Part shown: positions 8,603 to 63,960 of the stretch, piece after piece
How positions within the stretch are numbered: the stretch's first letter is position 1
How the letters are laid out: each line of letters opens with the position of its first letter
NCBI GenBank assembly: GCA_001823695.1
Contig: MHVD01000015.1
Coordinates: 2,445 to 66,444, forward strand
Direction of reading: 5' to 3'
From: Candidatus Zambryskibacteria bacterium RIFCSPHIGHO2_01_FULL_43_25
GTDB taxonomy: Bacteria; Patescibacteriota; Minisyncoccia; Phycocordibacterales; Zambryskibacteraceae
DNA: 64,000 nt
The notes under the pieces: model-generated
The model's input: the letters and a program-made list of their open reading frames with translations, nothing else
What the model was told of the DNA's origin: nothing
Databases searched by the model: none
Made by a program: the position numbers and the translations under genes

Positions 8603-8706
8603 CTATTTATACCAATGAGGAAAATGGGAAGATTATGAAAATTGGAAAAAATAAGGAAATTTCGGAACTTTCCTATACTAGTATTTTGCAAAACACTAGT
8701 ATAGGA
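8603..8706. repeat. composite repeat unit: half of palindrome d + conserved 47-bp linker + 36-bp palindrome c (TCCTATACTAGTATTTTGCAAAACACTAGTATAGGA)
   Basis: Same unit in inverse orientation at 58826-58955 (~90% identical). Confidence 0.6.
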
Positions 8707-8836
8707 AATACAAAAGGAGCCCCGCACCCGTGACCGCTCCAATGAATCCGCCGAGACCCACGACGAGACCCCAGCCGAAACCTCCTTTCGTCTCTTGGTT
8801 TTTCTTCTTGAGCCACTGCCAGACATATCTGAACAT
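8696..8836 (-). CDS. 46-aa Gly-zipper hydrophobic peptide (GC-rich small gene)
   Basis: Manual translation MFRYVWQWLKKKNQETKGGFGWGLVVGLGGFIGAVTGAGLLLYFLY; ~60% GC; AAGGA 10 nt upstream; stop lies inside palindrome c. Confidence 0.3.
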   Translation of the reverse strand: MFRYVWQWLKKKNQETKGGFGWGLVVGLGGFIGAVTGAGLLLYFLY

Positions 8837-8923
8837 AGCATCCGTCCTTGTTGAAGTTAATAAACTGTTTTCCGATGGTATTATAACAATATGTTGTTAA
8901 TAAGTCAAGAACATCACCCATAG

Positions 8924-14180: not shown

Positions 14181-14335
14181 CGTAAGACGTAAAACTTGTA
14201 GCGTAAAACATAAAGCGCAAATCTTGTGCGAATTCATACGTTACTTTTGCGCGACCGCGTAAAAATAACGTATGGGACAAAAAATTAAAAACAAAAAAAA
14301 GCCCCTCGTTCGTCAGGTGACAAACGAAGGACTCG

Positions 14336-14368
14336 CCCCTCACACGCCCTTGCGAGCGTGTGAGGGGG
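14336..14368 (-). terminator. hairpin CCCCTCACACGC...GCGTGTGAGGGG with downstream T-run (on - strand) after GC-rich gene
   Basis: 12-bp perfect stem; A-run 14293-14300 on + strand. Confidence 0.45.
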
Positions 14369-14382
14369 TGCGGGTTTGCTAC

Positions 14383-14976
14383 TTACTTCACGCTCGGCCC
14401 GCTGGAGGCGGAGCGAGGGCGAACGAGACGAGCAAGGCGAAGCCAATCGTGCGCGAGCCAGCGCCAGAGCAGGAGCCACGAGCGACCGCCCCAGGACAGG
14501 TACGGGACGTGCCGGTCGCCAGCCGCGTGGACGACAACGGTGCCGGAGAGCGGGATGTACGTCCCCGTCGGCAGGCCGAAGCCCTCATTGCGATACTTTG
14601 CAATGAAGGCCAGGCCATGGCGCAGGCCGAGGTCAGCCCGTGCGCTGGCCGCCCGAGACAACATCTCGTCGCTTGAGATGCTGTCTCGGCTGTTCTCGAG
14701 GAGCTCGATGAACTCGAGCTCCAGTGTGCCGACGGGTCCGACTGCGTCCTTCTCGACGCGGTCGATCCAATCCGGGAACTGGAGCTCTTCGGTCCCCGTC
14801 ACGGTGATGACAGGAATGAAGATCTCGCGAACTGCCCGAGCGAGCGCGGCATCGAACTTCGCACGCAACTCGCTCGGCCCGTCAATCAGGACCTGCGCGA
14901 GATGAGGAACGATTTCGTCCGGCGCGGGAAGGGCGCGGACGATCGAGGCCACTAGCTCGTTGAATTGCCGGGACAT
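14383..14976 (-). CDS. hypothetical protein, 197 aa, ~62% GC (foreign-looking cassette)
   Basis: Long ORF in GC-rich island; GGAGG 6 nt before ATG; protein-like composition, no recognised motif. Confidence 0.45.
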   Translation of the reverse strand: MSRQFNELVASIVRALPAPDEIVPHLAQVLIDGPSELRAKFDAALARAVREIFIPVITVTGTEELQFPDWIDRVEKDAVGPVGTLELEFIELLENSRDSISSDEMLSRAASARADLGLRHGLAFIAKYRNEGFGLPTGTYIPLSGTVVVHAAGDRHVPYLSWGGRSWLLLWRWLAHDWLRLARLVRPRSASSGPSVK

Positions 14977-15323
14977 ACTAACCTCCGTTCCGTGCGGCCA
15001 ACCCCTTACTCAAGCACCATGCTTGAGCCGAGAGCTTACCGCGTTGGTACAGCCCTCCATCTTTTATCCACAAAGTAAAAATAAAAAAATGGAGTACTTC
15101 AATCAAAAGATAAAAAGTGGGGGGCTGTACCAACAAGCTTGTCCGCTTAAGTTACGAAGCAGGTTTTTCAAGTAGCATATAAAGAACTTCTTCATGTATA
15201 TTATATCATACTTCGTATCTAAAAGTCAATGGGTTTTTTGCACAATTTTACTATCCTATTTTGTTGCCATTATTAGCCGTTTTTTTGCCCCCCACCTTTT
15301 GTCAGGAGACAAAAGGTGGGGGA

Positions 15324-17886: not shown

Positions 17887-17914
17887 TTGACAAATCCTGT
17901 GTATTTGCTATAAT
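17887..17914 (+). promoter_or_regulatory. consensus sigma70 promoter TTGACA-16-TATAAT
   Basis: Perfect hexamers read directly upstream of the GC-rich phosphatase gene. Confidence 0.6.
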
Positions 17915-17932
17915 TGATACGGAGTTGTTCGT

Positions 17933-18412
17933 TTGCAGTTATCCTGCCCAAATTGGCAAAACGCGGGAGACAAGATGTTTCGGATTCTCGCAGTTTGCAA
18001 GGGGAATCGGTCTCGCAGTCCCATGTTTGAAGCTCTGCTTCAGCTGGCACTGCAGGAGAACGGCAGGACCGACGTGGTCGTGGAAAGTGCGGGAACAATC
18101 CAAGAAGCGGCAAATCATCCGGCCGAAGAGGGCGCACTAGTTGCCGCCAAGCGGGTTGGTCTCGATCTGAGCGGCCACGTCAGTCGCTGGGTTGGCGATC
18201 TCAATCTCAGGGACTTCCATATCATCTACTGCATGGAGCCCTCGGTGAGAGACGTCGTCCGAGAGTTCAATCTGCCTCCGACGGTCCGGATCATTCTGGT
18301 AAACGAGGAGCAGGGAGGAATCCCCAATCCCTACCAGAAGGGGCAGGAAGCATACGATGAGTCGCTGGAGGTCATCAGGTCTGTGGTCGGGAAAATCGTC
18401 CGCGATCTGTAA
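17933..18412 (+). CDS. low-molecular-weight phosphotyrosine phosphatase / ArsC-type arsenate reductase (57% GC)
   Basis: P-loop VCKGNRSRS (CX5R); likely true start MFRILAV at 17975; GGGAGA SD. Confidence 0.65.
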   Translation: MQLSCPNWQNAGDKMFRILAVCKGNRSRSPMFEALLQLALQENGRTDVVVESAGTIQEAANHPAEEGALVAAKRVGLDLSGHVSRWVGDLNLRDFHIIYCMEPSVRDVVREFNLPPTVRIILVNEEQGGIPNPYQKGQEAYDESLEVIRSVVGKIVRDL

Positions 18413-18431
18413 CCTTTCCACGAGTCGTTCA

Positions 18432-18468
18432 GGGAGCGGTCACAATGTGTGCCCGCTCCTTTTGTTTA
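18432..18468. terminator. bidirectional intrinsic terminator GGGAGCGG...CCGCTCC + TTTTGTTT
   Basis: Between convergent genes. Confidence 0.55.
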
Positions 18469-27525: not shown

Positions 27526-27560
27526 GGGAATTAAGAATCTGGAATAAGGAATAAAAAAAC
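27526..27560 (+). repeat. stop-codon-adjacent GGAATAAGGAAT-type tandem repeat (family f)
   Basis: GGGGAATTAAGAATCTGGAATAAGGAATAAAAAAAC. Confidence 0.4.
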
Positions 27561-27599
27561 ACCCCCCAACGTCCCATTAATACGGGAGTCGGGGGGTGT
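27551..27599 (-). terminator. intrinsic terminator ACACCCCCC...GGGGGGTGT with T-run on - strand
   Basis: Shares TACGGGAGTCGGGG core with terminator at 43137-43188. Confidence 0.55.
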
Positions 27600-27612
27600 A
27601 ATGCTGGGAGGT

Positions 27613-28032
27613 TCAGGCTCTTTGCCCGCCGAGCAGGAAGATTGCCAGAAAGGCAGCCAACACGCCGACGATTTGCTTCAACGTGTACTCGCCATTCTGT
27701 ACCATGTGGTACACGACCGGCAGAGAGACCTGAACCATAATCATCATGACGAACAGCATACCAACCTGTTCCTTTGTTACCTTTGCTAGCATACTGTTGA
27801 AGGTCAAGAGCCCTGAAACTGCGACGACTCCCGCTGCCAGAGCGAATTCAATCCTTGCTGTATGCAAAGTCTGGAATCCGCTAGTGACAGCAAAGGGAAT
27901 GATCACAGTCAGGGCAACGCAGGACTGAACCAGGGAGGCAACATTCCCGTTCAGTCCGCTTCTGTTCATCAGTAGCGGCCAGAAGCCGAAAAAGATGCCT
28001 GCCAGAATTGTTCGCGAGTAGAGGTCGGTCAT
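27613..28032 (-). CDS. 4-TM EamA/SMR-like small transporter (52% GC)
   Basis: 139 aa, four predicted TM helices; AAGGA SD. Confidence 0.4.
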   Translation of the reverse strand: MTDLYSRTILAGIFFGFWPLLMNRSGLNGNVASLVQSCVALTVIIPFAVTSGFQTLHTARIEFALAAGVVAVSGLLTFNSMLAKVTKEQVGMLFVMMIMVQVSLPVVYHMVQNGEYTLKQIVGVLAAFLAIFLLGGQRA

Positions 28033-28293
28033 ATAGCCGTCCTTGCTTGAGGTTCGTTTTTCTGCTTACTATTATATCAAATTTACGGAAGTTGTCAAAT
28101 TTTCTAATGTGCGCTTTGTGACCCCACGGGCCTGCCTGCCGGCAGGCAGGGAATCGGCTAGCTGTATTTTTTTGCTGAAAAATCATCCAGCCCGCCCTCG
28201 CACCAGTGCTCCGGGCTTCGATTCTCTCCACCCAGAGATCATGACGGGTACAGAAAAAGGCCCCACACAAAATGGAACCTTTTTCTGTACCCA

Positions 28294-28462: not shown

Positions 28463-28877
28463 ATAAGTTTGTGTTTTTATATACAGTTTGTTAGCATAAC
28501 ATAACTCCGGCACGGCGATTTGCCCCGCAATCTAAGTACCGAGCTGGGGTTGTCTGGTCGCGGGGAAGTGTCCAGACTTGTGTGGCTATGGTTAGCCTTA
28601 TCGACCATTGAGTTGGTATCGGTGCATTACCATAAGCCATCAACCCTTCCGCGAGGAAGGCGTATATTACCCTCAACGCTGTATAAGTGTTTGAGGGTAA
28701 CTTGTTTTTATACTTTCACCCTTGCCGCTCCCTGTCTTTTTTTCCACGACTCAAACTATTCTACTATTCGCGCGAATTAGAGATATGTTTAGGTTTTGTA
28801 ATAATTTGGTTTTTTTATTTTACACCTAACATTTATAATGTTATTATTTTCTCGGAAACCTGAACCTTGGAGGGTGT

Positions 28878-29213
28878 ATGGCAAGGAAAAAGAAGACTCA
28901 GCCACCCAAGTACTACGTGGAACCGATCCCGCTTGAGGGGTCCCCAGTCAATTCGTGGCTCGCCGAGAGGTTGGATGCGGAAAAGGACACCTTGAGTGCG
29001 TACGACGCTCAGGGGATCCATCACAACGTCTGGGTATGCGACCTCGAGACCATGAGACTTCTCAAGTTCATCGCCGAGAGCCGTGCGAGGGAGGGCTGGT
29101 CGTACGAGGTCTTCAACATGATGGATGACGGCCGCCTAAAGAAGATCAGGGGTGAGTATCGAGTCAAACAACCTCGCAGGGGAGTCTTCTTCCCGGCACC
29201 GACGCACTCCTGA
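28878..29213 (+). CDS. hypothetical protein, 111 aa, ~57% GC cassette
   Basis: GGAGGG SD 5 nt upstream; own terminator 29232-29271. Confidence 0.4.
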   Translation: MARKKKTQPPKYYVEPIPLEGSPVNSWLAERLDAEKDTLSAYDAQGIHHNVWVCDLETMRLLKFIAESRAREGWSYEVFNMMDDGRLKKIRGEYRVKQPRRGVFFPAPTHS

Positions 29214-29231
29214 CATCGCAAGCCACTTCAA

Positions 29232-29271
29232 ACCGCCCCCGCACATTGCGTGCGTGGGGCGGCTTTGTTTT
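29232..29271 (+). terminator. intrinsic terminator CCGCCCCCGCAC...GTGCGTGGGGCGG + TTTGTTTT
   Basis: GC stem followed by T-run. Confidence 0.5.
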
Positions 29272-30389: not shown

Positions 30390-30427
30390 TTGGTATAATA
30401 AATAACGATCGTTATTTATTATACCAA
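30390..30427. repeat. 38-bp perfect palindrome (family d): TTGGTATAATAAATAACGATCGTTATTTATTATACCAA
   Basis: Identical copies at 35049-35084 and 58917-58954; each arm contains extended -10-like TGGTATAAT. Confidence 0.55.
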
Positions 30428-30502
30428 TCCGGAAATTCAAAAAAAGTGATGGCAAGAGGGAGAGTGAATTGGGGAAAATCAATGAAATCTTACAACGGGA
30501 CA

Positions 30503-30540
30503 AATGAAAAAGCGGGGCCGAGTTTGCTCATCGGCCCCGC
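30503..30540 (-). terminator. intrinsic terminator GCGGGGCCGAGTTTGCTCATCGGCCCCGC + T-run (- strand)
   Basis: Read directly downstream of GC-rich gene. Confidence 0.55.
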
Positions 30541-30560
30541 TATGGGGAGTGAATGACGAG

Positions 30561-30926
30561 TCAGTCCCCAACGCGTTTGTCGTATCTGATCGTACGGTCG
30601 AAGGCATCATCTTCATTTACATCCTCGACCAGTTGACGGACTCTTTCCGTCTGCTGGTCTGGTCTCGATGCCTTCCTGCCGGACCGTTGAGGCCTGGGCG
30701 ACCTCCGCACCTGACTTATTGGTGGGTCGGTGGCCTTCTGCCCAGCGGTCATAATGCGCCTCTTGAACTCCTTGAGGCTTTCCTTGGGGCCCCTGTACAT
30801 CTCGTAGTACTCGTTCCAGGCCCTGTACCCGGCGGTTTGGTAGTCACCCTCCCGCTTGATCTCAAGGACTCTCCTATCGATCGCGGAACGGATTTCAACC
30901 TCGGCCATACCCTTGATGTTGGCCAT
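30561..30926 (-). CDS. hypothetical protein, 121 aa, ~60% GC cassette
   Basis: GGGAGAGG SD; own terminator. Confidence 0.4.
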   Translation of the reverse strand: MANIKGMAEVEIRSAIDRRVLEIKREGDYQTAGYRAWNEYYEMYRGPKESLKEFKRRIMTAGQKATDPPISQVRRSPRPQRSGRKASRPDQQTERVRQLVEDVNEDDAFDRTIRYDKRVGD

Positions 30927-31144
30927 TGTTCCTCTCCCGTGAACAATGTGAGACGACGTACGCCTTCTAATGTTTATTGTAGCATATTAGATATTAAAAG
31001 TCAATATAAAGTGTGGAAAAATTAGAAATATAGCTCTACGTAAGGGTTTTTTACAGGTAAAAAATTTTCGCATAGCTTATCCAGCCAAAACTAAAAACAT
31101 TCTCATATTCTTAAGAATATGAGAATGTTTTATTTCTGAATTTA

Positions 31145-31591: not shown

Positions 31592-31668
31592 GATAATTTC
31601 ATTATAACTAATAACAAACAACCTACAACTTACAACAAAAAACAAAAGACGAAAAACTAAACATTATT

Positions 31669-31698
31669 ATATTTGATATTTTGCGCAAAATATCAAAT
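31669..31698. repeat. palindrome family e copy 2 (TATTTGATATTTTGCGCAAAATATCAAATA)
   Basis: Identical 30-bp core to 29279-29318. Confidence 0.45.
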
Positions 31699-31757
31699 AG
31701 ATAAGGTAAAAAATAAACGAAGTTTAGTTAACTATGCAAAGCCGGACTTTGCATAAA

Positions 31758-31946
31758 CTAAAATTCTCCCAATAAGGTATAAGCTACAACCATAGCCAGT
31801 AATACTAAAATCCCCGCTAACTCTGGTTTAATACCAATTCTGAACGTTTCTTTACCCTGCATATTACAAAGAATTAAAACAAAAATGTGCCATATACCAA
31901 CTAAACTAAAAAATATAACGGTATTTTGTAGAACGTGGCTAATCAT
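31758..31946 (-). CDS. small hydrophobic protein (62 aa)
   Basis: 2 TM helices; start overlaps upstream stop (ATGA). Confidence 0.3.
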   Translation of the reverse strand: MISHVLQNTVIFFSLVGIWHIFVLILCNMQGKETFRIGIKPELAGILVLLAMVVAYTLLGEF

Positions 31947-32089
31947 TTATCTAACTTTCTAAGTATCTCTATCTGCTTAGCTAATATAACCGCCAATATA
32001 AAAACTATAAACCATTGTGATGTTTCTTGAATATAGAGAAAGCCAAGAATCACTACAACCGCAAACCAAGCTATTGGATATTTATTCAT
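31943..32089 (-). CDS. small hydrophobic protein (48 aa)
   Basis: Manual translation MNKYPIAWFAVVVILGFLYIQETSQWFIVFILAVILAKQIEILRKLDK. Confidence 0.3.
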   Translation of the reverse strand: MNKYPIAWFAVVVILGFLYIQETSQWFIVFILAVILAKQIEILRKLDK

Positions 32090-32101
32090 AATTAAATTAT
32101 A

Positions 32102-32674
32102 TCACTCTTCATCAATAACAAACTGGTACTCATAATTCAAGCGGGTATCAGTTGAGGAAGTATTTTCTCTAGGAACAATATTTATAAGAGTTACTCTAAA
32201 GTTTTTTCTATAGATATCTATAACACGCGAGTTATTGGGAGAGGTCTGGTAGAAAGTAAACAAGTCCTTTTCCTTAGGTTCTAATTGGTATGAATATGCA
32301 GAACCACTACTCTGTGGAGCCATTTCATCTGGCAATTGAGAAAAAGCCATATTTCTAACTAAAGTTATTTGATGGGCAGGGTCAGGATTTTCAAAGGTCT
32401 TAAATGGTCTTAATGTCCCACCTCCCAACTGAATAACATTTGTTTCCTGCGGATATCCTCTTAGAAATATACTTGCTGTAAAGTCAGAGGTTAAAGGTTT
32501 TCCAAGAGGATTATCAACCCAGCCAAAACGGACAAAGACACCATAAATTGCAGCAAAAAAAAGCAATGCAATACCTATTCCCCGCAAGGCTTTTAGTAGG
32601 GCAAAATACCATTTACCCAACTTTAAGTCCTTTATTATACCACCAAGTGTTTTTTCAGGGTCAAATTCACCCAT
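32102..32674 (-). CDS. hypothetical membrane-anchored protein (190 aa)
   Basis: One TM near N-terminus; no motif. Confidence 0.35.
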   Translation of the reverse strand: MGEFDPEKTLGGIIKDLKLGKWYFALLKALRGIGIALLFFAAIYGVFVRFGWVDNPLGKPLTSDFTASIFLRGYPQETNVIQLGGGTLRPFKTFENPDPAHQITLVRNMAFSQLPDEMAPQSSGSAYSYQLEPKEKDLFTFYQTSPNNSRVIDIYRKNFRVTLINIVPRENTSSTDTRLNYEYQFVIDEE

Positions 32675-32804
32675 AAGGAGTAGTAACCCTACTATAATAG
32701 CAAAAAAATAAACTACTTATTACAGTGGTATAAGTACAAAAAAATAAAAGCTAAGTAGCCAACAAGCTAGAAAGCTTATAAGCTAGTCTGTTATAATAGA
32801 CCAA

Positions 32805-33884
32805 ATGCAGACGATTCTCATTGTTCTAATAGTTTTTTTGGTCCTTCTTTCGGGGGCGCTTTTTTGGTTACTTTTTCGCGGACACAGAAAAGAGAATGGG
32901 CAAGATGGGATGGTGCTTCTACAGAACCAATTTAACGACCTTATACGAACCATAGACAGCAAACTGGGCGAATCACGCAAGGAAATGAGCGAGGCCGTTA
33001 AACACCAATTTAGCGAATCCCAGCGGCTCATAAGAGAGATAAATGAGGAAGTTAGCAAGAATCTTCTTGAGGTTGCCAAAGAACAGACCAAAGCAAATGA
33101 AGCCACGCGTCAGTTTGTGACAATTGCGGAACAATTGGCGAATTTGGAAAAGGTTTTGAAGCATCAGAAACAAAGAGGGAATCTGGGCGAGGCATCGCTC
33201 AAGCTCATTCTTGAAAATATACTGCCGCCAACTTCTTTCAAAATGCAGTATGAGTTTCCCGGCGGCGATGTCGTGGACGCGGTGATTATCACAAAAGACG
33301 GATTTATACCGATAGATGCCAAATTCTCGCTGGATAATTATCAGCGGGTTACGCAGGCAGTTGATGAAAATCAGAGGGAAGAGCTAGAAAAAGAATTCAG
33401 GAACGATTTGAAAAAGAGGATTGACGAAACCTCCAAGTATGTGCGGCCCAGCGACGGCACATTGCCATTTGCCTTTATGTATATTCCAGCGGAGGCGATC
33501 TACTACGACCTGCTTATAAACGAAGTTGGGGCGGTGAAAGTGAATACCCGCAACCTGATTGACTACGCTTACAATGAAAGGAAAGTGATTATCGTGTCGC
33601 CGACAACTTTCGCGGCGTATCTGCAATCAGTTTTGTATGGATTTAGAGCGTTCAAGATTGAAGAGAGCGCAAAGGACATAATGAAGCGGGTAGGGGAACT
33701 GGGCAGGCATCTCAAAGCGCACGATGACTATATGGGCAAACTAGGCAGTTCAATATCAACAACTGTAAACCATTACAATGCCGCTTATAAAGAGCTTGGA
33801 AAGATAGACAAGGATGTGGTTCGCATCACGGGAGAATCTCCGGGGATAGAGCCAGTAGTGCTGGATAGGCCTAGCACGGAATAA
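32805..33884 (+). CDS. rmuC: DNA recombination protein RmuC
   Basis: N-terminal TM + coiled coil + RmuC C-domain. Confidence 0.8.
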   Translation: MQTILIVLIVFLVLLSGALFWLLFRGHRKENGQDGMVLLQNQFNDLIRTIDSKLGESRKEMSEAVKHQFSESQRLIREINEEVSKNLLEVAKEQTKANEATRQFVTIAEQLANLEKVLKHQKQRGNLGEASLKLILENILPPTSFKMQYEFPGGDVVDAVIITKDGFIPIDAKFSLDNYQRVTQAVDENQREELEKEFRNDLKKRIDETSKYVRPSDGTLPFAFMYIPAEAIYYDLLINEVGAVKVNTRNLIDYAYNERKVIIVSPTTFAAYLQSVLYGFRAFKIEESAKDIMKRVGELGRHLKAHDDYMGKLGSSISTTVNHYNAAYKELGKIDKDVVRITGESPGIEPVVLDRPSTE

Positions 33885-33906
33885 AGAATCAGGAATAAAG
33901 AATACA
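33877..33906 (+). repeat. stop-codon-overlapping tandem repeat GGAATAAAGAAT x2 (family f)
   Basis: rmuC TAA lies within first repeat unit. Confidence 0.45.
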
Positions 33907-33993
33907 AAAAGAGAAGCAATCTTAATTGACAACATACTAACAAACTTAAGTTTGTTAGTATGTTGTATTTGTGATGTAGTTATATAAAAAGAA

Positions 33994-34019
33994 ACCCGCC
34001 TCTCTAGTCGGAGGCGGGT
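33994..34019 (-). terminator. hairpin ACCCGCCTC...GAGGCGGGT + T-run (- strand)
   Basis: Immediately after small GC-rich ORF. Confidence 0.4.
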
Positions 34020-34129
34020 CAGCTCCGATTTCTTTTCTCCGGCTTGAACCTGATGGCTACAACGATGGCAACAACAGCAACAGCTGCGGTGCCGCAGATG
34101 ACGAGAATGGACACTGTGTCGGCGGACAT
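34019..34129 (-). CDS. 36-aa single-TM peptide (GC-rich)
   Basis: Manual translation MSADTVSILVICGTAAVAVVAIVVAIRFKPEKRNRS; AAGGTG SD. Confidence 0.3.
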   Translation of the reverse strand: MSADTVSILVICGTAAVAVVAIVVAIRFKPEKRNRS

Positions 34130-34283
34130 CGTTCACCTTGTTGTTGTGAGTGGGTTCTATGTTTCCAAAAGTATAATAGCATACTAAATATATATTTGTC
34201 AAATCTAAAACATGATCTCATAAAATACAGCTTTCACACTTGCTTTAGTAAGTATTATCCAGTAATATATTGCCTCGTATGGT

Positions 34284-34426
34284 CCCGTAAGAAACCCTGC
34301 CTGTGCAGGCAGGCGCGGTCACGGTTTCAGTTGGAACTGAATAATAGGCATGTCTTATAAGGGGTATAATATTTACAAATATAATTTTTAGCAGGGTGCG
34401 GCTGACCGCGACCTGTTTCTAACGGG
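34284..34426 (+). repeat. start-codon-abutting element (family g), short copy upstream of rplU
   Basis: TCCCGTAAGAAAC ... GACCTGTTTCTAACGGG fused to ATG. Confidence 0.5.
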
Positions 34427-34837
34427 ATGGCAGATAAAAAAGAAACTATCAAAAAAGCTACAAGTGCTCCTAAAAAGAGCTCGGCTAAAGTTGTGGCAAA
34501 AGAAAAACCTGCGACCAAGGGTGGGAAGGTGGAATCGGCTGTTATATTTACAGGAGGCAAGCAATATATCGTTTCGTCAGGAGACAGATTGAAGATTGAA
34601 AAGATAAAAGGGGATTATAAAGAGGGCGACAAGGTGAAGTTTGATAAAGTATTACTTACCGTAAATGGCGGTAAAGCGACACTGGGCAACCCCTTTATTT
34701 CCGGCGCGTCAGTTTCGGCGACAATTTCAAAGATAGGAAAAGCCAAGAAGGTTACGGTTATAAAATATAAACAAAAAAGCCGATATTTCAAAAAGCGAGG
34801 ACACAGGCAGCCATTTTTTGAAGTTGTGATTGACTAG
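34427..34837 (+). CDS. rplU: 50S ribosomal protein L21 with Lys-rich N-extension
   Basis: Core YIVSSGDRLKIEKI...VKFDKVLL matches L21. Confidence 0.85.
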   Translation: MADKKETIKKATSAPKKSSAKVVAKEKPATKGGKVESAVIFTGGKQYIVSSGDRLKIEKIKGDYKEGDKVKFDKVLLTVNGGKATLGNPFISGASVSATISKIGKAKKVTVIKYKQKSRYFKKRGHRQPFFEVVID

Positions 34838-34872: not shown

Positions 34873-34914
34873 AATCATCACATATTTTTGCTATAGCAAA
34901 AATATGTGATGATT
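34873..34914. repeat. 42-bp perfect palindrome AATCATCACATATTTTTGCTA|TAGCAAAAATATGTGATGATT
   Basis: Single copy between convergent rplU and recR. Confidence 0.45.
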
Positions 34915-35048: not shown

Positions 35049-35084
35049 TGGTATAATAAATAACGATCGTTATTTATTATACCA
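35049..35084. repeat. palindrome family d copy 2
   Basis: Identical to 30390-30427 core. Confidence 0.55.
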
Positions 35085-37514: not shown

Positions 37515-37584
37515 ATATTATCACAGGGCAGGGAAGCGCGACAAAGGCTGTTTTACTGCACAAGCTGTGGGGAAGGTGGGGACA

Positions 37585-37634
37585 AATAAGAATTAGGAAT
37601 AAGGAATTAAGAATGACCTGTTTCTAACGGGATG
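37585..37634 (+). repeat. family f tandem repeat fused to a solo family g 3' end (GACCTGTTTCTAACGGGATGAA) with no downstream gene
   Basis: ATG followed by stop after 4 codons. Confidence 0.45.
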
Positions 37635-37729
37635 AAAACAAATTAGCTTTTAAGTGCTTGCCCATTCAAGTTTTACGAAGCAAAAATTGTTTGGGTCAGC
37701 TGTCAGCTATCAGTCCGTCAGTTGACGGA

Positions 37730-39121: not shown

Positions 39122-39127
39122 AAAGTT

Positions 39128-39218
39128 AGGAATAAAGAATTGAGAATAAAGAATTATGAATAGAAATTAATTGGCTGAGTTTGGGTTGTTCATTATTCCT
39201 AATTCCTTGTTCATAATT
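39128..39218. repeat. family f repeats in inverted arrangement (AGGAATAAAGAATTGAGAATAAAGAATTATGAA ... TTCATTATTCCTAATTCC)
   Basis: Forms long dyad between cysS start and corA end. Confidence 0.45.
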
Positions 39219-41595: not shown

Positions 41596-41766
41596 AACTG
41601 CGGGGAACGAATCGGGATAACATGAAAATGATAAATCCTGTAGTAGAAAATGACATTGTAGAAACTAGGAAAAGGGAGATACTTTAAAAAATAATGGAGG
41701 CAAATTTATCAATTATAATTACAAGACAAATTACTCGTAAGGAGTAATGTCATTTTTCACTACAGG
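41596..41766 (+). repeat. hybrid element: family g 5' arm (TCCCGTTAGAAAC) + family a arms (CCTGTAGTAGAAAATGACAT ... ATGTCATTTTTCACTACAGG) abutting rplI ATG
   Basis: Read directly. Confidence 0.55.
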
Positions 41767-43070: not shown

Positions 43071-43110
43071 ATTTCTAATTACTAATTTCTAATTGACCTA
43101 AAGCAACCAC

Positions 43111-43142
43111 GGGGAATAAAGAATTACGAATTAAGAATGAAG
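43111..43142. repeat. family f tandem repeat (GGGGAATAAAGAATTACGAATTAAGAATGAAG)
   Basis: Adjacent to terminator of GC-rich gene. Confidence 0.4.
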
Positions 43143-43188
43143 AAACCCCGACCCCCGCTCCGTCAGTTGACGGATACGGGAGTCGGGG
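43137..43188 (-). terminator. intrinsic terminator CCCCGAC...TCCGTCAGTTGACGGA...GTCGGGG + T-run (- strand)
   Basis: Contains TCCGTCAGTTGACGGA core also at 37714 and 58785. Confidence 0.55.
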
Positions 43189-43271
43189 TTCGGGGTACGC
43201 ATATTACTCCGAGGGGAGAAATGAGAAGCCCCCGACACTTCGGTGTCGGGGGCAAGGTTGTTGTGGACCGA

Positions 43272-43643
43272 TCAGAGGAACACAGCCCGCTCGAACTGAC
43301 TCAGAGCTGGACGGGGGACTCGTTCGTCGTTCACGAGATGTACCCAGAGGTCGTACCATTCCTTGTGGTACTCCATCCATCCGAATCCGGAATCTCGCAC
43401 CGTCTGATGAGCGCCGAAGCCCTCACTCTGAACATGACGGAGCGTATCACGGAGCTGTCTGACTGGGGTCACTTTCTCCTCGACCCACCTCTCGAAGAGT
43501 TCGGGGTACGCCAGCCAGAGATCCCAAACCCCGAACCCGAAGAGTGCGAGTTTGTGAATCACGTATCTCGGGTTGCTCTCCGAGAAGAGCTCCTCATCGA
43601 GCTGATGCTCTCGCAGAGCATTCCTGATCGACTGGTAGGACAT
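43272..43643 (-). CDS. hypothetical Trp-rich protein, 123 aa, ~57% GC cassette
   Basis: AGGAGGG SD 3 nt before ATG; own terminator. Confidence 0.4.
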   Translation of the reverse strand: MSYQSIRNALREHQLDEELFSESNPRYVIHKLALFGFGVWDLWLAYPELFERWVEEKVTPVRQLRDTLRHVQSEGFGAHQTVRDSGFGWMEYHKEWYDLWVHLVNDERVPRPALSQFERAVFL

Positions 43644-43860
43644 GATCCCTCCTGGAGTGTGCGGTTAGACCGCACCCCTCTCAAGCGAGAGACCATTCAC
43701 TTCTCGAGTGCGGTAGTTGTCTTTCGAGACCGCTTAGCTACTTAGCATTGTTGCCTCCAATATTGAGGTTCAAGGGTCTTTGTATATACTACTATAACTA
43801 CAACAATATGTCAAATCAAATGAAAGTCTACATGTTTTCGCAAAAAATAGCAAATTCATA

Positions 43861-45200: not shown

Positions 45201-45216
45201 ATAATTTTTTAACGGG

Positions 45217-45897
45217 ATGGATATCGTTATTGCAAAAAAAATAAGAAAATCTTTTCATGATGGTGAGAAAGAACTTGCTGTTTTGAAAGGGCTTGACCTT
45301 TCTGTCAAAAGGGGAGAATTCTTATCAATAACCGGCCGATCCGGTTCGGGTAAGAGCACCCTTCTTTATCAGCTGGGACTTCTTGACAGTCCGAACTCGG
45401 GAGAAATTTATATTGATGGCATTGAGATTACTTCGCTCTCCAACGACGAGAGAACAATGATGCGGCTTGGAGAGCTGGGGTACATTTTCCAAGATTATGC
45501 TCTGGTGCCGGAGTTGTCAGCTCTCGAAAACGTTTTGGTCCCGCTTCTGATGCAGGGCCTGAGCGCGGACAAAGCCAGGGAAAAAGCCAAACTTTCTCTT
45601 GAGAAAATAGGCCTCAGCGATCGGTTTGACCACTTGCCGAACCAGCTTTCCGGAGGGGAACAGCAGAGAGTTGCCATTGCCCGAGCGGTAGCTCATGACC
45701 CGAAGATTATCTTTGCCGACGAGCCGACAGCCAACCTGGACAGCGAAACGGCGGATGTAGTTCTCCAAAATTTTCTTGACCTCAACCGAGAAGGGCAGAC
45801 GATAATAATGGTGACTCACGAGCCTGAGTATGCGTCCTTAACTCATCGCATCGTCCAGCTTTCGGATGGCGTTATTGCTTCAGAAGTAGTAAATTAA
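45217..45897 (+). CDS. ABC transporter ATP-binding protein (MacB/LolD-type)
   Basis: Walker A GRSGSGKST, signature LSGGEQQRVAIARA, Walker B IIFADE. Confidence 0.85.
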   Translation: MDIVIAKKIRKSFHDGEKELAVLKGLDLSVKRGEFLSITGRSGSGKSTLLYQLGLLDSPNSGEIYIDGIEITSLSNDERTMMRLGELGYIFQDYALVPELSALENVLVPLLMQGLSADKAREKAKLSLEKIGLSDRFDHLPNQLSGGEQQRVAIARAVAHDPKIIFADEPTANLDSETADVVLQNFLDLNREGQTIIMVTHEPEYASLTHRIVQLSDGVIASEVVN

Positions 45898-45903: not shown

Positions 45904-46106
45904 AATGAATCCCGTAAGAAATAGGAAATGTAACATATATGAAAATAAAAAAGCAAACAATTTATATACTCGAAAAAGGAGATGCGGCTGGTTGTGGGAC
46001 ATAAACATTTCCGTAGTTAAATAGTTGGTAGGTATATTAATATTGAGCAAATAAGAAAAATTCATTTAAATTTTACAAGACAAACTAAATAATTTCTAAC
46101 GGGATG
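45904..46106 (+). repeat. start-codon-abutting element (family g) copy 3
   Basis: Flanked by ATGAA on both sides; removal plus one ATGAA restores a 16-bp spacer between ATPase stop and hlyD ATG. Confidence 0.65.
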
Positions 46107-47624
46107 AAAGAAAAAATAAAAAAAGTTACTGAAAACATAAAAAGACACAAGATTATTTCTGCTGTTGCGCTTATGGTCATAATTGCAGTTATCGCGGGAA
46201 TTGCCGGCAGGAGCGGAAATGGCAAGGAATACGTTACTGTTGATAGTGGAGAAGTGGTTGTCGAAGTAGCTGTTACAGGCAAGGTGAAGGCCCTCCGCGA
46301 CGTATCGCTGTCTTTCGAAAAGGCCGGTAGAATCGCTTACGCGCCATTTTCAATCGGGGACGCGGTAAGCGCGAGCCAAGTTTTAGCTTCTTTGGACAAG
46401 TCTCAAGCGAACGCTGACTTGCTGAAGGCTCGCGCCGCGCTTCAAGTTGAGGAGGTTGCACTTACAAAACTCAAGCAAAGCGCTCCAAATGACTACAATG
46501 ACGCCAAAGCGAATCTCGTCGCCTCCATTGAGGATGCTTATGTGAAAACTGACGATGCCGTGAGAAACAACGCCGATCAATTTTTTAAGAATCCAAGAAC
46601 GAGCGCTAATTACCTTGAATTTTCTTTTATCGACGGAGGCACTATTTATAATTTCCCGATTGATACGGATTTGAAGATAAAGATTAATAACGAAAGGTAC
46701 GCTTTGGAACTGTCGCTGAATAAATGGCAGGCGGGCCTGCTGTCCGTAAATTCGGCGCCTTTACTTGATTCGTTTGTCGCCGAAGCTGAGTCCGTTCTCA
46801 AGCAAGCAAACATTTTCTTAAACGACCTAGCGCTGGCCGCCAATTCCATTGTCCCGTCAGAATTCCAGTATGAGGCGACTATCAGCGGGTATAAGACGAC
46901 TATAACAGGGGCAAGAAGCGGGGTGGGGGGTGCTCTCGCAAGCTTGATCGCTGCAAAGCAGAGTTGGAATGCCGCACCTCAGATTATAACTGGAGGACAG
47001 GGCGGCTATGATGACGTCTTGTCGCAAGAGGCGAAAGTAGCCCAAGCAGAGGCCACAGTTAAAGCCGCAGAAGTTGATTTGTTGAAAACTGAAATTCGTT
47101 CTCCCATAGACGGGGTATTGTCAGTGCAAAATGGCGAAGTCGGTGAAATAGCCACAGTCAATACGCCAATTGTAGGCATAATTTCGGACAAACAATTTGA
47201 AATTGAAGCTGATGTCTCAGAGGTTAATGTGGGTAAAATTGGCATTGGAAATGAAGTCAGTATTACCTTTGACGCTTTCTTGGGCCAAGTATTTACGGGA
47301 GAAGTTTTCAGCATAGAACCTTCTGAAACGATTGTTGACGGGGTGGTTAATTTTAAAACTAAAATTCGCATACCAGAGAATTCTGTTGGGCTCAAGAACG
47401 GCTTGACGGCAAATTTGAAAATAAAATCGGCTTCCAAGACGGACGTTCTAAGAATCCCCCAGTACGCGCTAAAAAAAAGAGACGATGTTTTGATTGCGCG
47501 AGTGCAAACCAGCGATGGTGTTGAAGAAAGAGTGGTTTCAACCGGACTTATCGGTTCAAACGGATTTGTTGAAATAGTGAGCGGCTTAAACGGGGGAGAG
47601 AGGGTGCTGATTAGCAGTGAATAA
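46104..47624 (+). CDS. HlyD-family periplasmic adaptor-like protein (YknX/MacA-like)
   Basis: N-terminal TM, long coiled coil, C-terminal beta-barrel. Confidence 0.6.
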   Translation: MKEKIKKVTENIKRHKIISAVALMVIIAVIAGIAGRSGNGKEYVTVDSGEVVVEVAVTGKVKALRDVSLSFEKAGRIAYAPFSIGDAVSASQVLASLDKSQANADLLKARAALQVEEVALTKLKQSAPNDYNDAKANLVASIEDAYVKTDDAVRNNADQFFKNPRTSANYLEFSFIDGGTIYNFPIDTDLKIKINNERYALELSLNKWQAGLLSVNSAPLLDSFVAEAESVLKQANIFLNDLALAANSIVPSEFQYEATISGYKTTITGARSGVGGALASLIAAKQSWNAAPQIITGGQGGYDDVLSQEAKVAQAEATVKAAEVDLLKTEIRSPIDGVLSVQNGEVGEIATVNTPIVGIISDKQFEIEADVSEVNVGKIGIGNEVSITFDAFLGQVFTGEVFSIEPSETIVDGVVNFKTKIRIPENSVGLKNGLTANLKIKSASKTDVLRIPQYALKKRDDVLIARVQTSDGVEERVVSTGLIGSNGFVEIVSGLNGGERVLISSE

Positions 47625-47655
47625 AGAATCAGGAATTAGGAATTAAGAATTTAAA
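47618..47655 (+). repeat. stop-codon-overlapping tandem repeat (family f)
   Basis: GTGAATAAAGAATCAGGAATTAGGAATTAAGAAT; hlyD TAA inside first unit. Confidence 0.45.
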
Positions 47656-47734
47656 AGAAAAACCCGTTAGAGGTCGGAAGACATAACGGGGAGCAGTTTG
47701 GCTGGGTCTGCTCAGCCCTTGTTACTGTCGCTTA

Positions 47735-48148
47735 CTAGCGAGAGCGCTTCATTTGCAACCCCCTGTCCTTGAGGGCCGCGTTCTCGAGCGCGAGTTCAGC
47801 ATACATACGCTTGAGTCTTGTGTTCTGGTTTTCCAGATCCCGCAACCGCTCTTGGTCTTGCATCGCGGACCCGCCCAACATCTCGATGAACAACTTGCTC
47901 TCGGATATACCAAGCGCCCTAGCAATCAGGTGGACTTGGGGAACCGTGAGATGCGCGCGCCCCTTCTCGACACGATGCAGGTGCGCAACCGAGACTCCTC
48001 TCTTCGCGGGATCAACTTTCTTGGTTGCACCCCAGAGAGCACGCAGGGAGAACCTCCGCTCCGTGCGATTGTTGCGCAAGGCGATCGCCTCGGCAGACAA
48101 AGACACAGAACCCCTCTCGGGATTTGCGTCTGCAACTACGGATGACAT
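47735..48148 (-). CDS. XRE-family HTH transcriptional regulator with C-terminal coiled coil (58% GC)
   Basis: HTH LTVPQVHLIARALGISESKLF; GGAG SD. Confidence 0.6.
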   Translation of the reverse strand: MSSVVADANPERGSVSLSAEAIALRNNRTERRFSLRALWGATKKVDPAKRGVSVAHLHRVEKGRAHLTVPQVHLIARALGISESKLFIEMLGGSAMQDQERLRDLENQNTRLKRMYAELALENAALKDRGLQMKRSR

Positions 48149-48201
48149 GGGGTTTTCTCCGCGTGGAGGTGGGGGGTGAAAGAAACGTCTATCCGTTACT
48201 A

Positions 48202-48229
48202 ATTATATCAAGTTGTTAAATCTTGTCAA
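48202..48229 (-). promoter_or_regulatory. consensus sigma70 promoter TTGACA-16-TATAAT (- strand)
   Basis: Perfect hexamers on reverse strand. Confidence 0.55.
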
Positions 48230-48230
48230 G

Positions 48231-48258
48231 TTGCAAAAAAACTAAAAACTGTTAAAAT
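48231..48258 (+). promoter_or_regulatory. divergent promoter TTGCAA-16-TAAAAT (+ strand)
   Basis: Back-to-back with XRE promoter; leads into structured region ending at terminator 48656-48692. Confidence 0.35.
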
Positions 48259-48655
48259 ATACACGTAGTTCTTTAAGAGCGAAATCAGCCCCAAAGACCC
48301 TGCGGTGCAGTGTCGGGGTAAAAAACACCCTCTCTTTTCTTTGGATTTGGAAAAGCCCAAAGGGAAGAGAGGGGCAGTCATGATTAATGGCAACCGTGCC
48401 TTGTCCGGCACGAGCAAGCTTCTCTCAACAATTCAATCTTATGAGGATTAGAAGCGTTGTGGGATTGGGGCTTGCCATAATTATGGCGAAGTTTCTAGTC
48501 CCGAGAATTTTTTCGGGATTTGAGAACACCCTCGTGTTGTTCTTTGATCTCGCGCAAACCATACTTACTCGCGGGAACAATTCCGCGACAAGTATTGGCA
48601 GTTTCTTGCCCTCTCCGTAGGCAGAAGAGCCTTTCGGGCGGGGCAGGGAAGAGAA

Positions 48656-48692
48656 AACCGGCAGCTGACTTCACAGCTTGTCCGGTTTTTTG
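48656..48692 (+). terminator. intrinsic terminator AACCGGCAGCTG...AGCTTGTCCGGTT + TTTTTT
   Basis: Read directly. Confidence 0.5.
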
Positions 48693-48788
48693 CTGAAAAT
48701 TGACAAAAGCGTTAAAAAACGGATTAAAATTATAGCCAAAATATAGCTACAGATATAGTTATTTTAGACTTTTTTGTTACGAAAAAGA

Positions 48789-48817
48789 TTGACAAATAAA
48801 CTAAAACATGCTAAGAT
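48789..48817 (+). promoter_or_regulatory. promoter TTGACA-17-TAAGAT followed by hairpin TCCAGG-TTAGAA-CCTGGA-TTTTT
   Basis: Read directly. Confidence 0.45.
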
Positions 48818-48915
48818 AGATATGTCCAGGTTAGAACCTGGATTTTTCTTTTTACGGAGACGACAGAATTATCCATTAAGCAAAATCTATTATAAATCTC
48901 GCGACAGTTGGTTTA

Positions 48916-58190: not shown

Positions 58191-58465
58191 CGTTTTATTA
58201 TGTTTCTACATTTCACTTTGTCGTTCTCCAAACTTTTTGAAATTTTGTTAAAATCCGCTAGCGAATATAATATCAGAAAAAGCGTGACTTAGGCATTGGG
58301 CTCTAGGAACTAGGTTTTAGAATTGGCCCTTTAACTTGATTGACTTTTTGTTTGGTACAGCTTTTAGAGCACGAGACATCGTTCTTTAAAAGCTGTACCA
58401 ACGCTTACCCGTGAGTCCTCGGTATAGGGCCGAGAGAGGAAAGGTAAACATGCGAGGAGGATAAG

Positions 58466-58636
58466 ATGGGACACAGAATGGGGACAAACCAGGCGCTGGC
58501 GCTCGCAGGGGCTCTCACCCAGAAATTACCGGCCGACTTAGACCAGGATGTCGCGAAAGCGTGGATTACCAGTCCCGTCGCGATCACGGCTTTCCTCGAA
58601 GGCCTTCGTTCCTATCCAGTCGTCTTTCCGGACTGA
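58466..58636 (+). CDS. 56-aa hypothetical protein in 60% GC island
   Basis: GAGGAGG SD 6 nt before ATG. Confidence 0.3.
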   Translation: MGHRMGTNQALALAGALTQKLPADLDQDVAKAWITSPVAITAFLEGLRSYPVVFPD

Positions 58637-58678
58637 GTACGGGGAATACCCGAGGACACACCGTTCCACAACGGCAAG

Positions 58679-58870
58679 ATGGCGATCCACGAGTTCCTTG
58701 CAGACGACGAGCAGTATGTCGTCGGCGAGAAAATGTTCGCACGAGCCAAGATCAGACCGCGGCTTGGCTACCCCGACGACCACATCCGTCAGTTGACGGA
58801 GTGGTGTCGGGACTCTTTTTGTTTTCTCTATACTAGTGTTTTGCAAAACACTAGTATAGGAGAGTTCTGA
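58679..58870 (+). CDS. 63-aa hypothetical protein in GC island
   Basis: Ends at TCCGTCAGTTGACGGA hairpin; C-terminus runs into palindrome c so true stop uncertain. Confidence 0.2.
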   Translation: MAIHEFLADDEQYVVGEKMFARAKIRPRLGYPDDHIRQLTEWCRDSFCFLYTSVLQNTSIGEF

Positions 58871-62803: not shown

Positions 62804-62833
62804 TTGACTTTTGTATATGAAGTATGATATAAT
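62804..62833 (+). promoter_or_regulatory. promoter TTGACT-18-TATAAT
   Basis: Read directly upstream of GC-rich gene. Confidence 0.45.
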
Positions 62834-62883
62834 TTAAAAGGAAAACGTTACCGTCTCCCCACCCCCCAACTTAAGGAGCTGAG

Positions 62884-63315
62884 ATGCGAATCATGGCCAA
62901 GGGAATCGTCGCCATACCAATTCTTCTCCTCTCGGCGTTCGTTCTTATCTTGGTCGATGAGAACTTGTTACCGCCGATGTCGGTCTCCACGAAAGTGAAG
63001 ACAGTCGAGAAGCACTTTTTCGCTCTACCAAGCGAAAAAGTGGCAAAGGAGTGGCGAGCTGACGCACCCGTCACCCTCATACAGAGCGGATGGGCTGACG
63101 GAGACCGAATGATTCTCGGCGTGGATGACAGTAGGTTCGCGAAGTTCATCGGCAGTGGTATGGAGGTGAAGGTGGTTCGTATCGAATATGATCTACCGTT
63201 CACTCACATACTGCATCGTCGTACACCGAGCCTACTAGCTCGCAACACGCGAGCTGTAGTCACAACTGGCAGCGGGGACGAGGTGGTGGTCGAGGGGATC
63301 TTCCGCTGGAAGTAA
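62884..63315 (+). CDS. hypothetical membrane-anchored protein, 143 aa, ~55% GC cassette
   Basis: AAGGAG SD; N-terminal TM. Confidence 0.4.
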   Translation: MRIMAKGIVAIPILLLSAFVLILVDENLLPPMSVSTKVKTVEKHFFALPSEKVAKEWRADAPVTLIQSGWADGDRMILGVDDSRFAKFIGSGMEVKVVRIEYDLPFTHILHRRTPSLLARNTRAVVTTGSGDEVVVEGIFRWK

Positions 63316-63344
63316 TCTTAGACCACCAGGGATAGCGCCTGGCA

Positions 63345-63960
63345 CCTGAAAAATGGTGCCAGGTGTTTTTCTATACCAGGAAACCCCGCCCGAAGGCGGC
63401 GTCGTTAAAATATATTAGCCGCCGAGAGGGCGGGGATGAATGGAACCTTGCACGTCGCATACGAAGTATGCGACGCTATTCTCATGAGGATTCAGCACCT
63501 AAATCACTCAACCTACCAACATCAGTACCATGTGGTGTGGGGCACAAAATACAGAAGAAAAATACTAAAACCATATGTTCTCAAGGAACTCAAGAAAAGT
63601 CTCTACGAAACGTGCAAAAAATACCCGACGCTCTGGATCGAGAGCATGAATACGAACGAAGACCACGTCCACATACAGATAGAAATACCACCAAACATAA
63701 CTATTTCAGATGCCGTCGGGAAACTGAAAGGATTGAGCAGCCGCCACTTACGTTCAAAATTCAGATTTATCAGGGAAATCTACCTGGAAAAAGACGGCAT
63801 CTGGAGTGTCGGGTATTTCACCTCAACTGTGGGACTGAACGAGAGTCAGGTCAAGAAATACATAGAATGGCAGAGCAAGAAAGACAAACCACAAAGATCC
63901 CGTCTATTCTGAATCCTCATGCCAACAAAGGAAACCCCGCCCTTTAGGGCGGGGAGGAGG
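63345..63960 (+). mobile_element. IS200/IS605-family insertion sequence (tnpA only) with subterminal hairpins
   Basis: Left hairpins CCTGGCACC...GGTGCCAGG and CCCCGCCC...GGGCGGGG, right hairpin CCCCGCCC-TTTA-GGGCGGGG; GGAAACCCCGCCC repeated at both ends. Confidence 0.6.
63436..63912 (+). CDS. tnpA: IS200-like Y1 (HUH) transposase TnpA
   Basis: HVHIQIEIPP (HuH) and YQHQYHVVWGTKYRRKIL. Confidence 0.85.
   Translation: MNGTLHVAYEVCDAILMRIQHLNHSTYQHQYHVVWGTKYRRKILKPYVLKELKKSLYETCKKYPTLWIESMNTNEDHVHIQIEIPPNITISDAVGKLKGLSSRHLRSKFRFIREIYLEKDGIWSVGYFTSTVGLNESQVKKYIEWQSKKDKPQRSRLF

Follow-up and report, generated by a model that had tools for sequence, protein, structure and literature searches.

The question raised by this locus is where a set of small GC-rich genes, scattered through a bacterial chromosome of lower GC content, comes from and how such genes are expressed. 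The window, by which we mean the whole 64 kb stretch analysed, is a core chromosomal part of a metagenome-assembled genome of Candidatus Zambryskibacteria (Parcubacteria/Patescibacteria) from Rifle groundwater. A first-pass annotation, made from the sequence alone, listed eleven small GC-rich open reading frames (ORFs) in a genome of about 45% GC, and took them for single-gene cassettes recently acquired from a high-GC donor. The contrast in composition is real: GC content is 0.443 in the window, and GC at third codon positions (GC3) is 0.62-0.79 in the cassettes against 0.484 in core genes. We favour, at roughly even chances, the reading that about ten of the cassettes are moron-like accessory modules, monocistronic single genes placed in variable junctions of a syntenic Parcubacteria chromosome. 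Their origin is mixed and at least in part mobile, with one IS3 remnant and one duplicated family among them. They should not simply be taken for newly imported genes of a high-GC genome; at least some are old and conserved in relatives.

Composition and expression signals of the cassettes

The core genes of the window include those for PriA, two penicillin-binding proteins, LysRS, CysRS, DnaB and the ribosomal proteins L9, L21 and L27. Identical proteins are named Candidatus Zambryskibacteria in NCBI. For the 29 core ORFs that reach 250 aa, GC content is 0.452±0.031 and GC3 is 0.484±0.050. None of the 29 carries a Shine-Dalgarno (SD) sequence, as the first-pass annotation had stated for the core genes.

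Ten of the eleven listed coordinate pairs are intact ORFs exactly as given. The eleventh, 58466-58870, is a degenerate copy (c58466) broken by an in-frame TGA at 58634-58636, and the ORF listed there runs through its own terminator. The cassettes are outliers in GC content as claimed, with a range of 0.52-0.65 in place of the 55-62% reported before. GC at the three codon positions (GC1/GC2/GC3), pooled over the cassettes, is 60/42/70. These values fit an equilibrium at 54-60% GC with no lag of the third position; the regression coefficients behind the estimate are reportedly those of Lawrence & Ochman 1997. The order GC3 > GC1 > GC2 holds in nine of ten cassettes, and c17933 has GC1 = GC3.

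Codon usage, a comparison that the first-pass annotation had named, also sets the cassettes apart: they share a distinct, non-core usage. The preferred codons in cassettes and core, respectively, are TTC (0.88 vs 0.39), ATC (0.66 vs 0.22), AAG (0.78 vs 0.39), GAG (0.73 vs 0.38) and CTC (0.40 vs 0.13). In a leave-one-out codon test each cassette was closer to the other cassettes than to the core, with log-likelihood ratios of +0.03 to +0.22, whereas the same test gave -0.19±0.04 (maximum -0.13) for 27 core genes. Translational selection was considered as the cause of this bias and rejected: the ribosomal protein genes are core-like, with a GC3 of 0.37-0.47 and core codons.

A strong SD 5-mer stands 3-7 nt before the ATG in eight of the eleven cassettes (background within the same genes 8%, P = 2.3e-7). 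The earlier claim of a GGAGG-type SD in each thus holds for these eight. The other three, c8696, c27613 and c34019, encode small membrane proteins and have AAGGA or AAGGTGA in place of the strong SD. Among the small ORFs of the window an SD was found in six of six GC-rich ORFs and in 4 of 43 others (P = 1.5e-5). The presence of SD sites, where the core genes of the lineage go without them, and codon-position values that resemble an unadjusted source of 54-60% GC would both suit a recent transfer of single genes from high-GC donors (one or more) that use SD, with a composition not yet adjusted.

All ten intact cassettes have a predicted promoter with at least 10/12 consensus matches, 59-253 nt upstream. 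Only three 12/12 promoters (TTGACA-16-TATAAT) occur in the 64 kb, at 17887, 28098 and 48229, and all belong to cassettes (c17933, c27613 and c47735), which bears out the report of several perfect promoters. The promoters of c62884 and c14383 are identical at 25 of 30 nt, as judged by reading both sequences. Ten of the eleven cassettes are followed by a GC hairpin with a T-run. The exception to the claimed individual terminators is c8696, which has no GC terminator and ends in an AT-rich palindrome. Our own hairpin and terminator detectors were unreliable, and the terminators were judged by sequence reading and folding; the folded ones have free energies (dG) of -24 to -42 kcal/mol and z-scores of -5.6 to -7.9. 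In every cassette the promoter, SD, ORF and terminator point the same way. The promoters and leaders are AT-rich.

Terminator pieces are shared between cassettes and with cysS, as had been noticed, with two positions corrected: the 16-mer TCCGTCAGTTGACGGA occurs at 37714, 43159 (not 43161) and 58785, vs 0.03 expected, and the 14-mer TACGGGAGTCGGGG at 27581 and 43175 (not 43177), vs 0 expected. As a DNA pattern, the hairpin tipped with TCCGTCAGTTGACGGA was found in seven metagenome stretches and one viral stretch (L090-L097) of unrelated context and 40-63% GC, and in none of the 80 related loci described below. This suggests that the tip is a recurrent, very stable hairpin, probably neither a lineage marker nor a sign of shared ancestry. 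The idea of a DNA-uptake sequence was dropped, three copies per 64 kb being too few.

Read together, the signals predict the following course of expression. RNA polymerase would start at the near-consensus -35/-10 promoter, and the mRNA would carry a partly hairpinned leader of 60-250 nt. The 30S subunit would be recruited by the SD 3-7 nt before the ATG, and one or two GC-rich hairpins with a U-tract would end the transcript. The same terminators may shield the neighbouring core genes, which are often oppositely oriented. Core genes would be expressed with no SD, often with a -10 box or the motif TTCTAACGGG against the ATG and with long AT-rich palindromes after the gene.

The focal unit and the products of the cassettes

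The first-pass annotation placed its feature at 43137-43745, which is a spurious-looking ORF on the plus strand. The real focal gene is the minus-strand ORF at 43272-43643 (c43272, Table 1). All expression signals at the site, among them tandem terminators at 43253-43228 and 43190-43144, lie on the minus strand, the order GC3 > GC1 > GC2 holds in the minus frame, and a codon model trained on the other cassettes gave the minus ORF a score of +11 and the plus ORF one of -11. On these grounds the minus strand is favoured, and the 202-aa plus-strand ORF is probably spurious. Public annotations disagree on the strand of the gene.

The leader of c43272 folds with a dG of -41.9 and a z-score of only -1.9, so that its structure is weakly supported. 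Within it, in the region 43734-43760, lies a 4-codon mini-ORF on the minus strand (43748-43734, ATG CTA AGT AGC TAA) with its own GGAGG, which may be a regulatory upstream ORF. One arm of the second terminator is common to the terminator of c27613.

A word-indexed search of 5.8 billion proteins with c43272 returned the protein itself only. Exhaustive HMMER comparison with 1.84 billion representative proteins returned itself and P0047 only. The latter was rejected as a homolog: it is a 2756-aa translated tandem repeat, and its score was summed over 13 weak repeats.

Six cassette products, including the focal one, are ORFans. Three others match Pfam families. The c17933 product, a low-molecular-weight (LMW) phosphotyrosine phosphatase, scores 64.2 bits against PF01451 (cut-off 23.2) and has the CX5R(S/T) loop in its translation as CKGNRSRS; its true start is probably the ATG at 17975. 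The c27613 product scores 23.8 bits against Pfam EamA, below the cut-off of 28.2, with the whole domain covered, and its UniRef name is EamA domain protein. The c47735 product scores 22.2 against HTH_Tnp_1, just below the cut-off of 24.1. Its residues 54-128 are 49% identical to annotated IS3 transposases, including those of Xanthomonas (tblastn, E = 2e-11). No OrfB (DDE) gene follows c47735, the terminator being succeeded by HlyD, and BLAST of the window against itself gave no flanking repeat or inverted repeats. The c47735 gene is a solo IS3 OrfA remnant, not a complete insertion sequence. Within public clusters, strain variants are set apart by no more than 1-3 residues or the choice of start codon, and so say nothing on presence or absence.

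Long ORFs arise on either strand of GC-rich DNA, gene callers differ in the strand they choose, and the focal ORF and five others have no homolog. All this would be expected if the cassettes were assembly chimeras, structured RNAs or ORFs that arose by chance in GC-rich DNA. Four independent assemblies (ENA, JGI, Logan) all show the same junctions, and this recurrence excludes a chimera. Rfam at permissive thresholds gave generic microRNA-like hairpin matches only. The three Pfam matches, the order of GC at codon positions in nine of ten cassettes and the co-orientation of all signals also argue against non-coding DNA. So does the c14383 family, which aligns as protein with a divergence that falls from third to first to second codon position. 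We consider an artefact highly improbable.

Age and origin of the cassettes

We fetched 80 Parcubacteria loci around CysRS, with 48-59% CysRS identity. They contain no homolog of any cassette. The backbone is collinear over 15 genes in three of them (L024, L014 and L020), and the comparison of junctions was possible for 2 of 11. The RmuC/L21 gap has a median of 62 nt in 39 loci, vs 542 nt here, where it holds c34019. The gap between the gene for a 157-aa protein and FtsX has a median of 289 nt in nine loci, vs 837 nt here, where it holds c43272. The description as single-gene cassettes stands: they are self-contained modules with a shared non-core codon usage, and c34019 and c43272, which the neighbourhoods of the relatives lack, occupy junctions that many relatives have in a short form.

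At the 157-aa/FtsX junction L054 has an unrelated, oppositely oriented GC-rich ORF of 210 aa that comes with a promoter, SD and terminator of its own, and L008 has a GC-rich insertion after the 157-aa gene. Between HlyD and the next backbone gene L024 (1696-2607), L014 (1663-2577) and L020 (1033-1953) carry a gene of ~303 aa that is trhO/YceA-like, as judged from its N-terminal sequence. This gene is absent from the window at 47625-48915, where the IS3-OrfA remnant lies. At 31646-32804, between YqeY and RmuC, the window has a 1.16-kb AT-rich insertion with three ORFs of GC 0.31-0.37; the same gap has a median of 93 nt in 36 relatives. Variable junctions thus also take up AT-rich genes.

In 68 of the relatives (1.19 Mb) the SD frequency of core genes is ~6%. 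An SD was found in 35% of their GC-rich small ORFs vs 11% of other small ORFs (P = 2.7e-5), and a good promoter in 28% vs 14% (P = 0.018). The GC-rich/SD pattern is lineage-wide, and it is unusually dense and clean in this window. No protein family is common to the GC-rich outliers of different genomes.

The phosphatase of c17933 has homologs of 46-50% identity on AT-rich contigs (L098 and L101/L102). These are convergent to the ortholog of the PEP-utilizer/PPDK neighbour of c17933, exceed their neighbours by 10-20 GC points, and likewise carry a promoter (TTG...TATAAT), an SD and a GC hairpin. For this cassette, synteny and GC-richness recur in three lineages, the kind of finding that the first-pass annotation had itself named as contrary to its proposal. 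The next-nearest phosphatase homologs (39-43% identity) are on contigs of 64-67% GC, which leaves room for an ancient transfer. The split PPDK-like genes at 18466-21604 (PPDK_N and two PEP-utilizer ORFs) have a GC of 0.35-0.40 and are AT-rich relative to the core. Such genes stand beside a GC-rich phosphatase in three lineages, which suggests a conserved kinase/phosphatase neighbourhood. Two paralogous small helix-turn-helix (HTH, ArsR-type) genes at 17554-17835 and 29686-29955 share 69% DNA identity over 253 nt; one adjoins c17933 and the other lies in the variable region at 27-31 kb.

The c14383 product belongs to a real protein family with two relatives at 56-61% identity. All three members keep a GC3 of 79-84% though 44% of third positions differ. 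Both relatives were found within AT-rich flanks only, with the same promoter/SD/terminator design, and one carries the TCCGTCAGTTGACGGA terminator tip. The leader hairpin of the family, TTGGTACAGC...GCTGTACCAACGC (also TTGGTACAGC...GCTGTACCAA), has an outer stem that is identical in three copies. Its inner stem differs among c14383, c58466 and L088, yet is paired in all three. L088 and L089 have leader sequence in common past the -10 box, and the hairpin stem of L088 recurs in the window copy. Scanning metagenomes with the family alignment gave no matches. The degenerate copy c58466 gives a weak but collinear match to the family hidden Markov model, reading through the stop codon. Its 3' flank (58803-58925) and the 3' end of c8696 (8607-8728) form a 123-nt inverted duplicate of 92% identity, which contains one AT-rich palindrome.

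Recent transfer from a high-GC donor, already mentioned for the SD sites and the codon-position values, also draws on the likeness of c47735 to IS3 OrfA of Xanthomonas and other high-GC bacteria, on the 64-67% GC contigs that hold the nearest phosphatases outside AT-rich contexts, and on the two junctions with c34019 and c43272. We nevertheless regard it as unlikely. The word 'recently' does not agree with a phosphatase that is syntenic and GC-enriched in lineages only 46-50% identical, nor with the GC3 of the c14383 family. The high-GC donor is unproven: the relatives of c14383 are confined to AT-rich contexts, protein searches found no ORFan homolog in any high-GC genome, and the 1.84 billion representative proteins held none for the focal ORFan. 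AT-rich promoters and leaders, together with the leader sequence and hairpin stem shared among the c14383 copies, also speak against it.

An explanation independent of transfer is a native second gene class, kept GC-rich, leadered and SD-dependent by selection, for instance for long-lived or post-transcriptionally regulated mRNAs. GC-richness that persists over deep divergence in two families, the SD enrichment of GC-rich small ORFs across the lineage and a leader hairpin whose inner part varies between copies and stays paired all point this way. Hairpins at the 5' end, a GC-rich body and strong 3' hairpins are known to stabilise mRNA. On the other side, most cassettes are lineage-specific ORFans absent from the 80 relatives, one is a transposase remnant, and the GC-rich outliers of different genomes share no protein family. 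The ribosomal protein genes lack the cassette codon usage, so that ordinary translational selection is not involved. We think such a class improbable. The broader proposal of two 'expression dialects' in one genome, a leaderless, SD-free and AT-rich core and a minority of accessory genes actively kept GC-rich, leadered, SD-dependent and hairpin-capped through deep evolution, seems to us very doubtful; a literature search found no paper describing such a pattern.

Accessory modules of mixed origin thus remain the reading that we prefer. The persistence of GC-rich codon usage in diverged relatives implies one of two things: it is kept up, for instance through selection for stable leadered mRNAs, or it is replenished from a GC-rich pool limited to these bacteria.

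Several points weigh against this reading. Promoters, transcription starts, SD use and termination are all predictions from sequence. Neither the origin nor the function of the six ORFan products is traceable, and the structure models of c14383 (pLDDT 40) and c43272 (helical, pLDDT 61) were too poor for fold searches. Presence and absence were judged only against relatives with about 50-58% CysRS identity, and at the same junctions many of them carry insertions of ordinary GC. GC-richness and expression signals are less closely linked in the relatives than in the window, and a terminator detector gave no difference there between the classes of ORFs, though it was unreliable and flagged only one of six window cassettes. 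Finally, Tsurumaki et al. detected the 16S anti-SD motif in only 48% of Parcubacteria (PMC9297842). If this organism has no anti-SD, the cassette SDs could not act on its own ribosomes, and the cassettes would have to rely on a different route of translation, or conceivably on translation inside another cell, for example a host. Searches of the window and of the fetched loci found no 16S rRNA gene.

Known systems and further features of the window

Morons, a concept of Hendrix/Juhala, possess a promoter and a terminator of their own and a deviant GC content (PMC3594210). The cassettes resemble phage morons in being single genes between genes that are adjacent in relatives (at the two junctions compared), with their own predicted promoter and factor-independent terminator and a deviant GC. 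Unlike morons, they are flanked by core cellular genes (penicillin-binding proteins, LysRS, CysRS, DnaB, ribosomal proteins) and lie in no prophage, and at least one is old and syntenic. They also lack phage connections: tblastn against a phage database gave no matches for c14383 and c43272, viral contigs held no relatives of the c14383 family, c28878, c30561 or c62884, and PHROG and PADLOC scans of the cassettes gave nothing informative. A plasmid search gave no match for c27613.

Horizontal transfer of single genes (~0.9 kb) into Patescibacteria has been documented (PMC12455944). Like acquired ORFans or genomic islets, the cassettes are short, of unknown function, atypical in composition and variable in position. 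Foreign genes are usually AT-richer than their host, whereas the cassettes are GC-richer. They differ from such genes also in sharing one codon usage and one set of signals that contrast with the host, and in a composition that is unadjusted even in diverged relatives.

With integron cassettes they have in common the small single-gene units, mostly of unknown function, and the imperfect hairpins. The modules, however, form no array but lie scattered over 55 kb, and each is served by a promoter of its own. An integrase gene did not turn up among those window ORFs that were examined, Pfam scans having covered only part of the ORFs. The hairpins of the modules are terminators or a 5'-leader stem and, inspected by eye, lack the R/L box pattern of attC. 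The likeness to IS3 insertion sequences concerns c47735 only, which has the HTH and leucine zipper of OrfA but lacks OrfB and inverted repeats and now has a perfect promoter and a terminator.

Patescibacteria make up a large uncultivated part of bacterial diversity, and their gene expression and gene acquisition are barely known. The window offers a testable contrast within one genome, between a core with neither SD nor canonical promoters and accessory genes with textbook signals and different codons. It also calls for caution, as atypical GC is routinely read as recent transfer, and here at least two families have preserved such a composition through deep divergence. If a second mode of expression is really maintained, it would be a regulatory layer in reduced symbionts and would mark the genes likeliest to have lineage-specific, perhaps host-related, functions. 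A GC-rich pool circulating only among these bacteria would imply an undescribed vehicle of exchange.

Table 1. Cassettes, focal unit and repeated elements of the window; promoters, leaders and terminators are predicted
Feature	Position	Strand	Components
c8696	8696..8908	-	promoter 8908-8880; 46-aa membrane peptide; 3' end in 123-nt repeat
c14383	14293..15229	-	promoter 15229-15200; 253-nt leader with hairpin 15134-15043; ORF 14976-14383 (197 aa, GC 0.65); two terminator hairpins 14368-14293
c17933	17887..18467	+	perfect promoter 17887-17914; LMW phosphotyrosine phosphatase 17975-18412; terminator 18432-18467
c27613	27553..28098	-	perfect promoter 28098-28071; 139-aa EamA-like protein with four transmembrane (TM) segments 28032-27613; terminator 27599-27553
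c28878	28819..29271	+	promoter; 111-aa ORFan 28878-29213; terminator 29233-29271
c30561	30506..31004	-	promoter 31004-30976; 121-aa basic ORFan 30926-30561; terminator 30540-30506
c34019	33986..34202	-	promoter 34202-34173; 36-aa membrane peptide 34129-34019; terminator 34018-33986; RmuC/L21 junction
TCCGTCAGTTGACGGA 16-nt hairpin	37714..37729	-	directly after stop codon of core gene cysS
c43272, promoter	43786..43814	-	TTGACA, 17-nt spacer, TAGTAT; 10/12 consensus
c43272, 5' leader	43644..43785	-	structured; hairpin just before SD; SD AGGAGGG 43654-43648
c43272, ORF	43272..43643	-	123 aa, Trp-rich, predicted helical, ORFan; GC 0.567, GC3 0.69
c43272, terminator 1	43228..43253	-	11-bp GC stem, GAAG-type loop, T-rich tail; dG -24.5, z -6.3
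c43272, terminator 2	43132..43190	-	22-bp hairpin and T-rich tail, tip TCCGTCAACTGACGGA; dG -41.9, z -7.3
Plus-strand ORF	43137..43745	+	202 aa; antisense to c43272; starts in terminator region, spans both hairpins
c47735	47653..48229	-	perfect promoter 48229-48202; 137-aa IS3-OrfA-like HTH/leucine-zipper protein 48148-47735; terminator 47690-47653
c58466	58341..58825	+	degenerate c14383-family copy; leader hairpin 58351-58402; SD GAGGAGG; terminator 58771-58825, TCCGTCAGTTGACGGA tip
c62884	62804..63371	+	promoter 62804-62833; 143-aa protein with N-terminal TM segment 62884-63315; terminator 63338-63371
AT-rich palindromes	8669-8708, 17472-17515, 29278-29317, 30389-30428, 31094-31131, 33929-33966, 34873-34914, 35049-35084, 58828-58859, 58915-58956
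Heptamer repeats	27516-27563, 33867-33914, 37571-37618, 39125-39172, 43102-43149, 47607-47654	-

Some core genes have a -10 box 6-12 nt before the ATG. The first-pass annotation had described promoters abutting the ATG in many core genes; by a strict test they occur in 5 of 50, so that 'some' is the better word. Several core genes have the motif TTCTAACGGG immediately against their ATG (23934-23943, 34420-34429, 45210-45219 and 46097-46106). The motif may signal a leaderless start or initiation that does not use an SD; it also occurs at 25902, 6761-6770 and 41757-41766. The sequence TAACGGGATG has six exact copies, on the plus strand only, and forms inverted repeats at 23709-23790, 25694-25753 and 45905-45951.

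Perfect AT-rich palindromes of 30-44 nt are abundant in intergenic DNA, and three sequence families of them recur. They probably serve the core genome as its native (bidirectional) terminators or as sites of protein binding. Direct repeats of the heptamer type (ATTCYTW)3-4 occur on the minus strand at six sites, all in one orientation. Four lie just past cassette terminators; of the other two, one follows the cysS hairpin and one immediately precedes the ATG of cysS.

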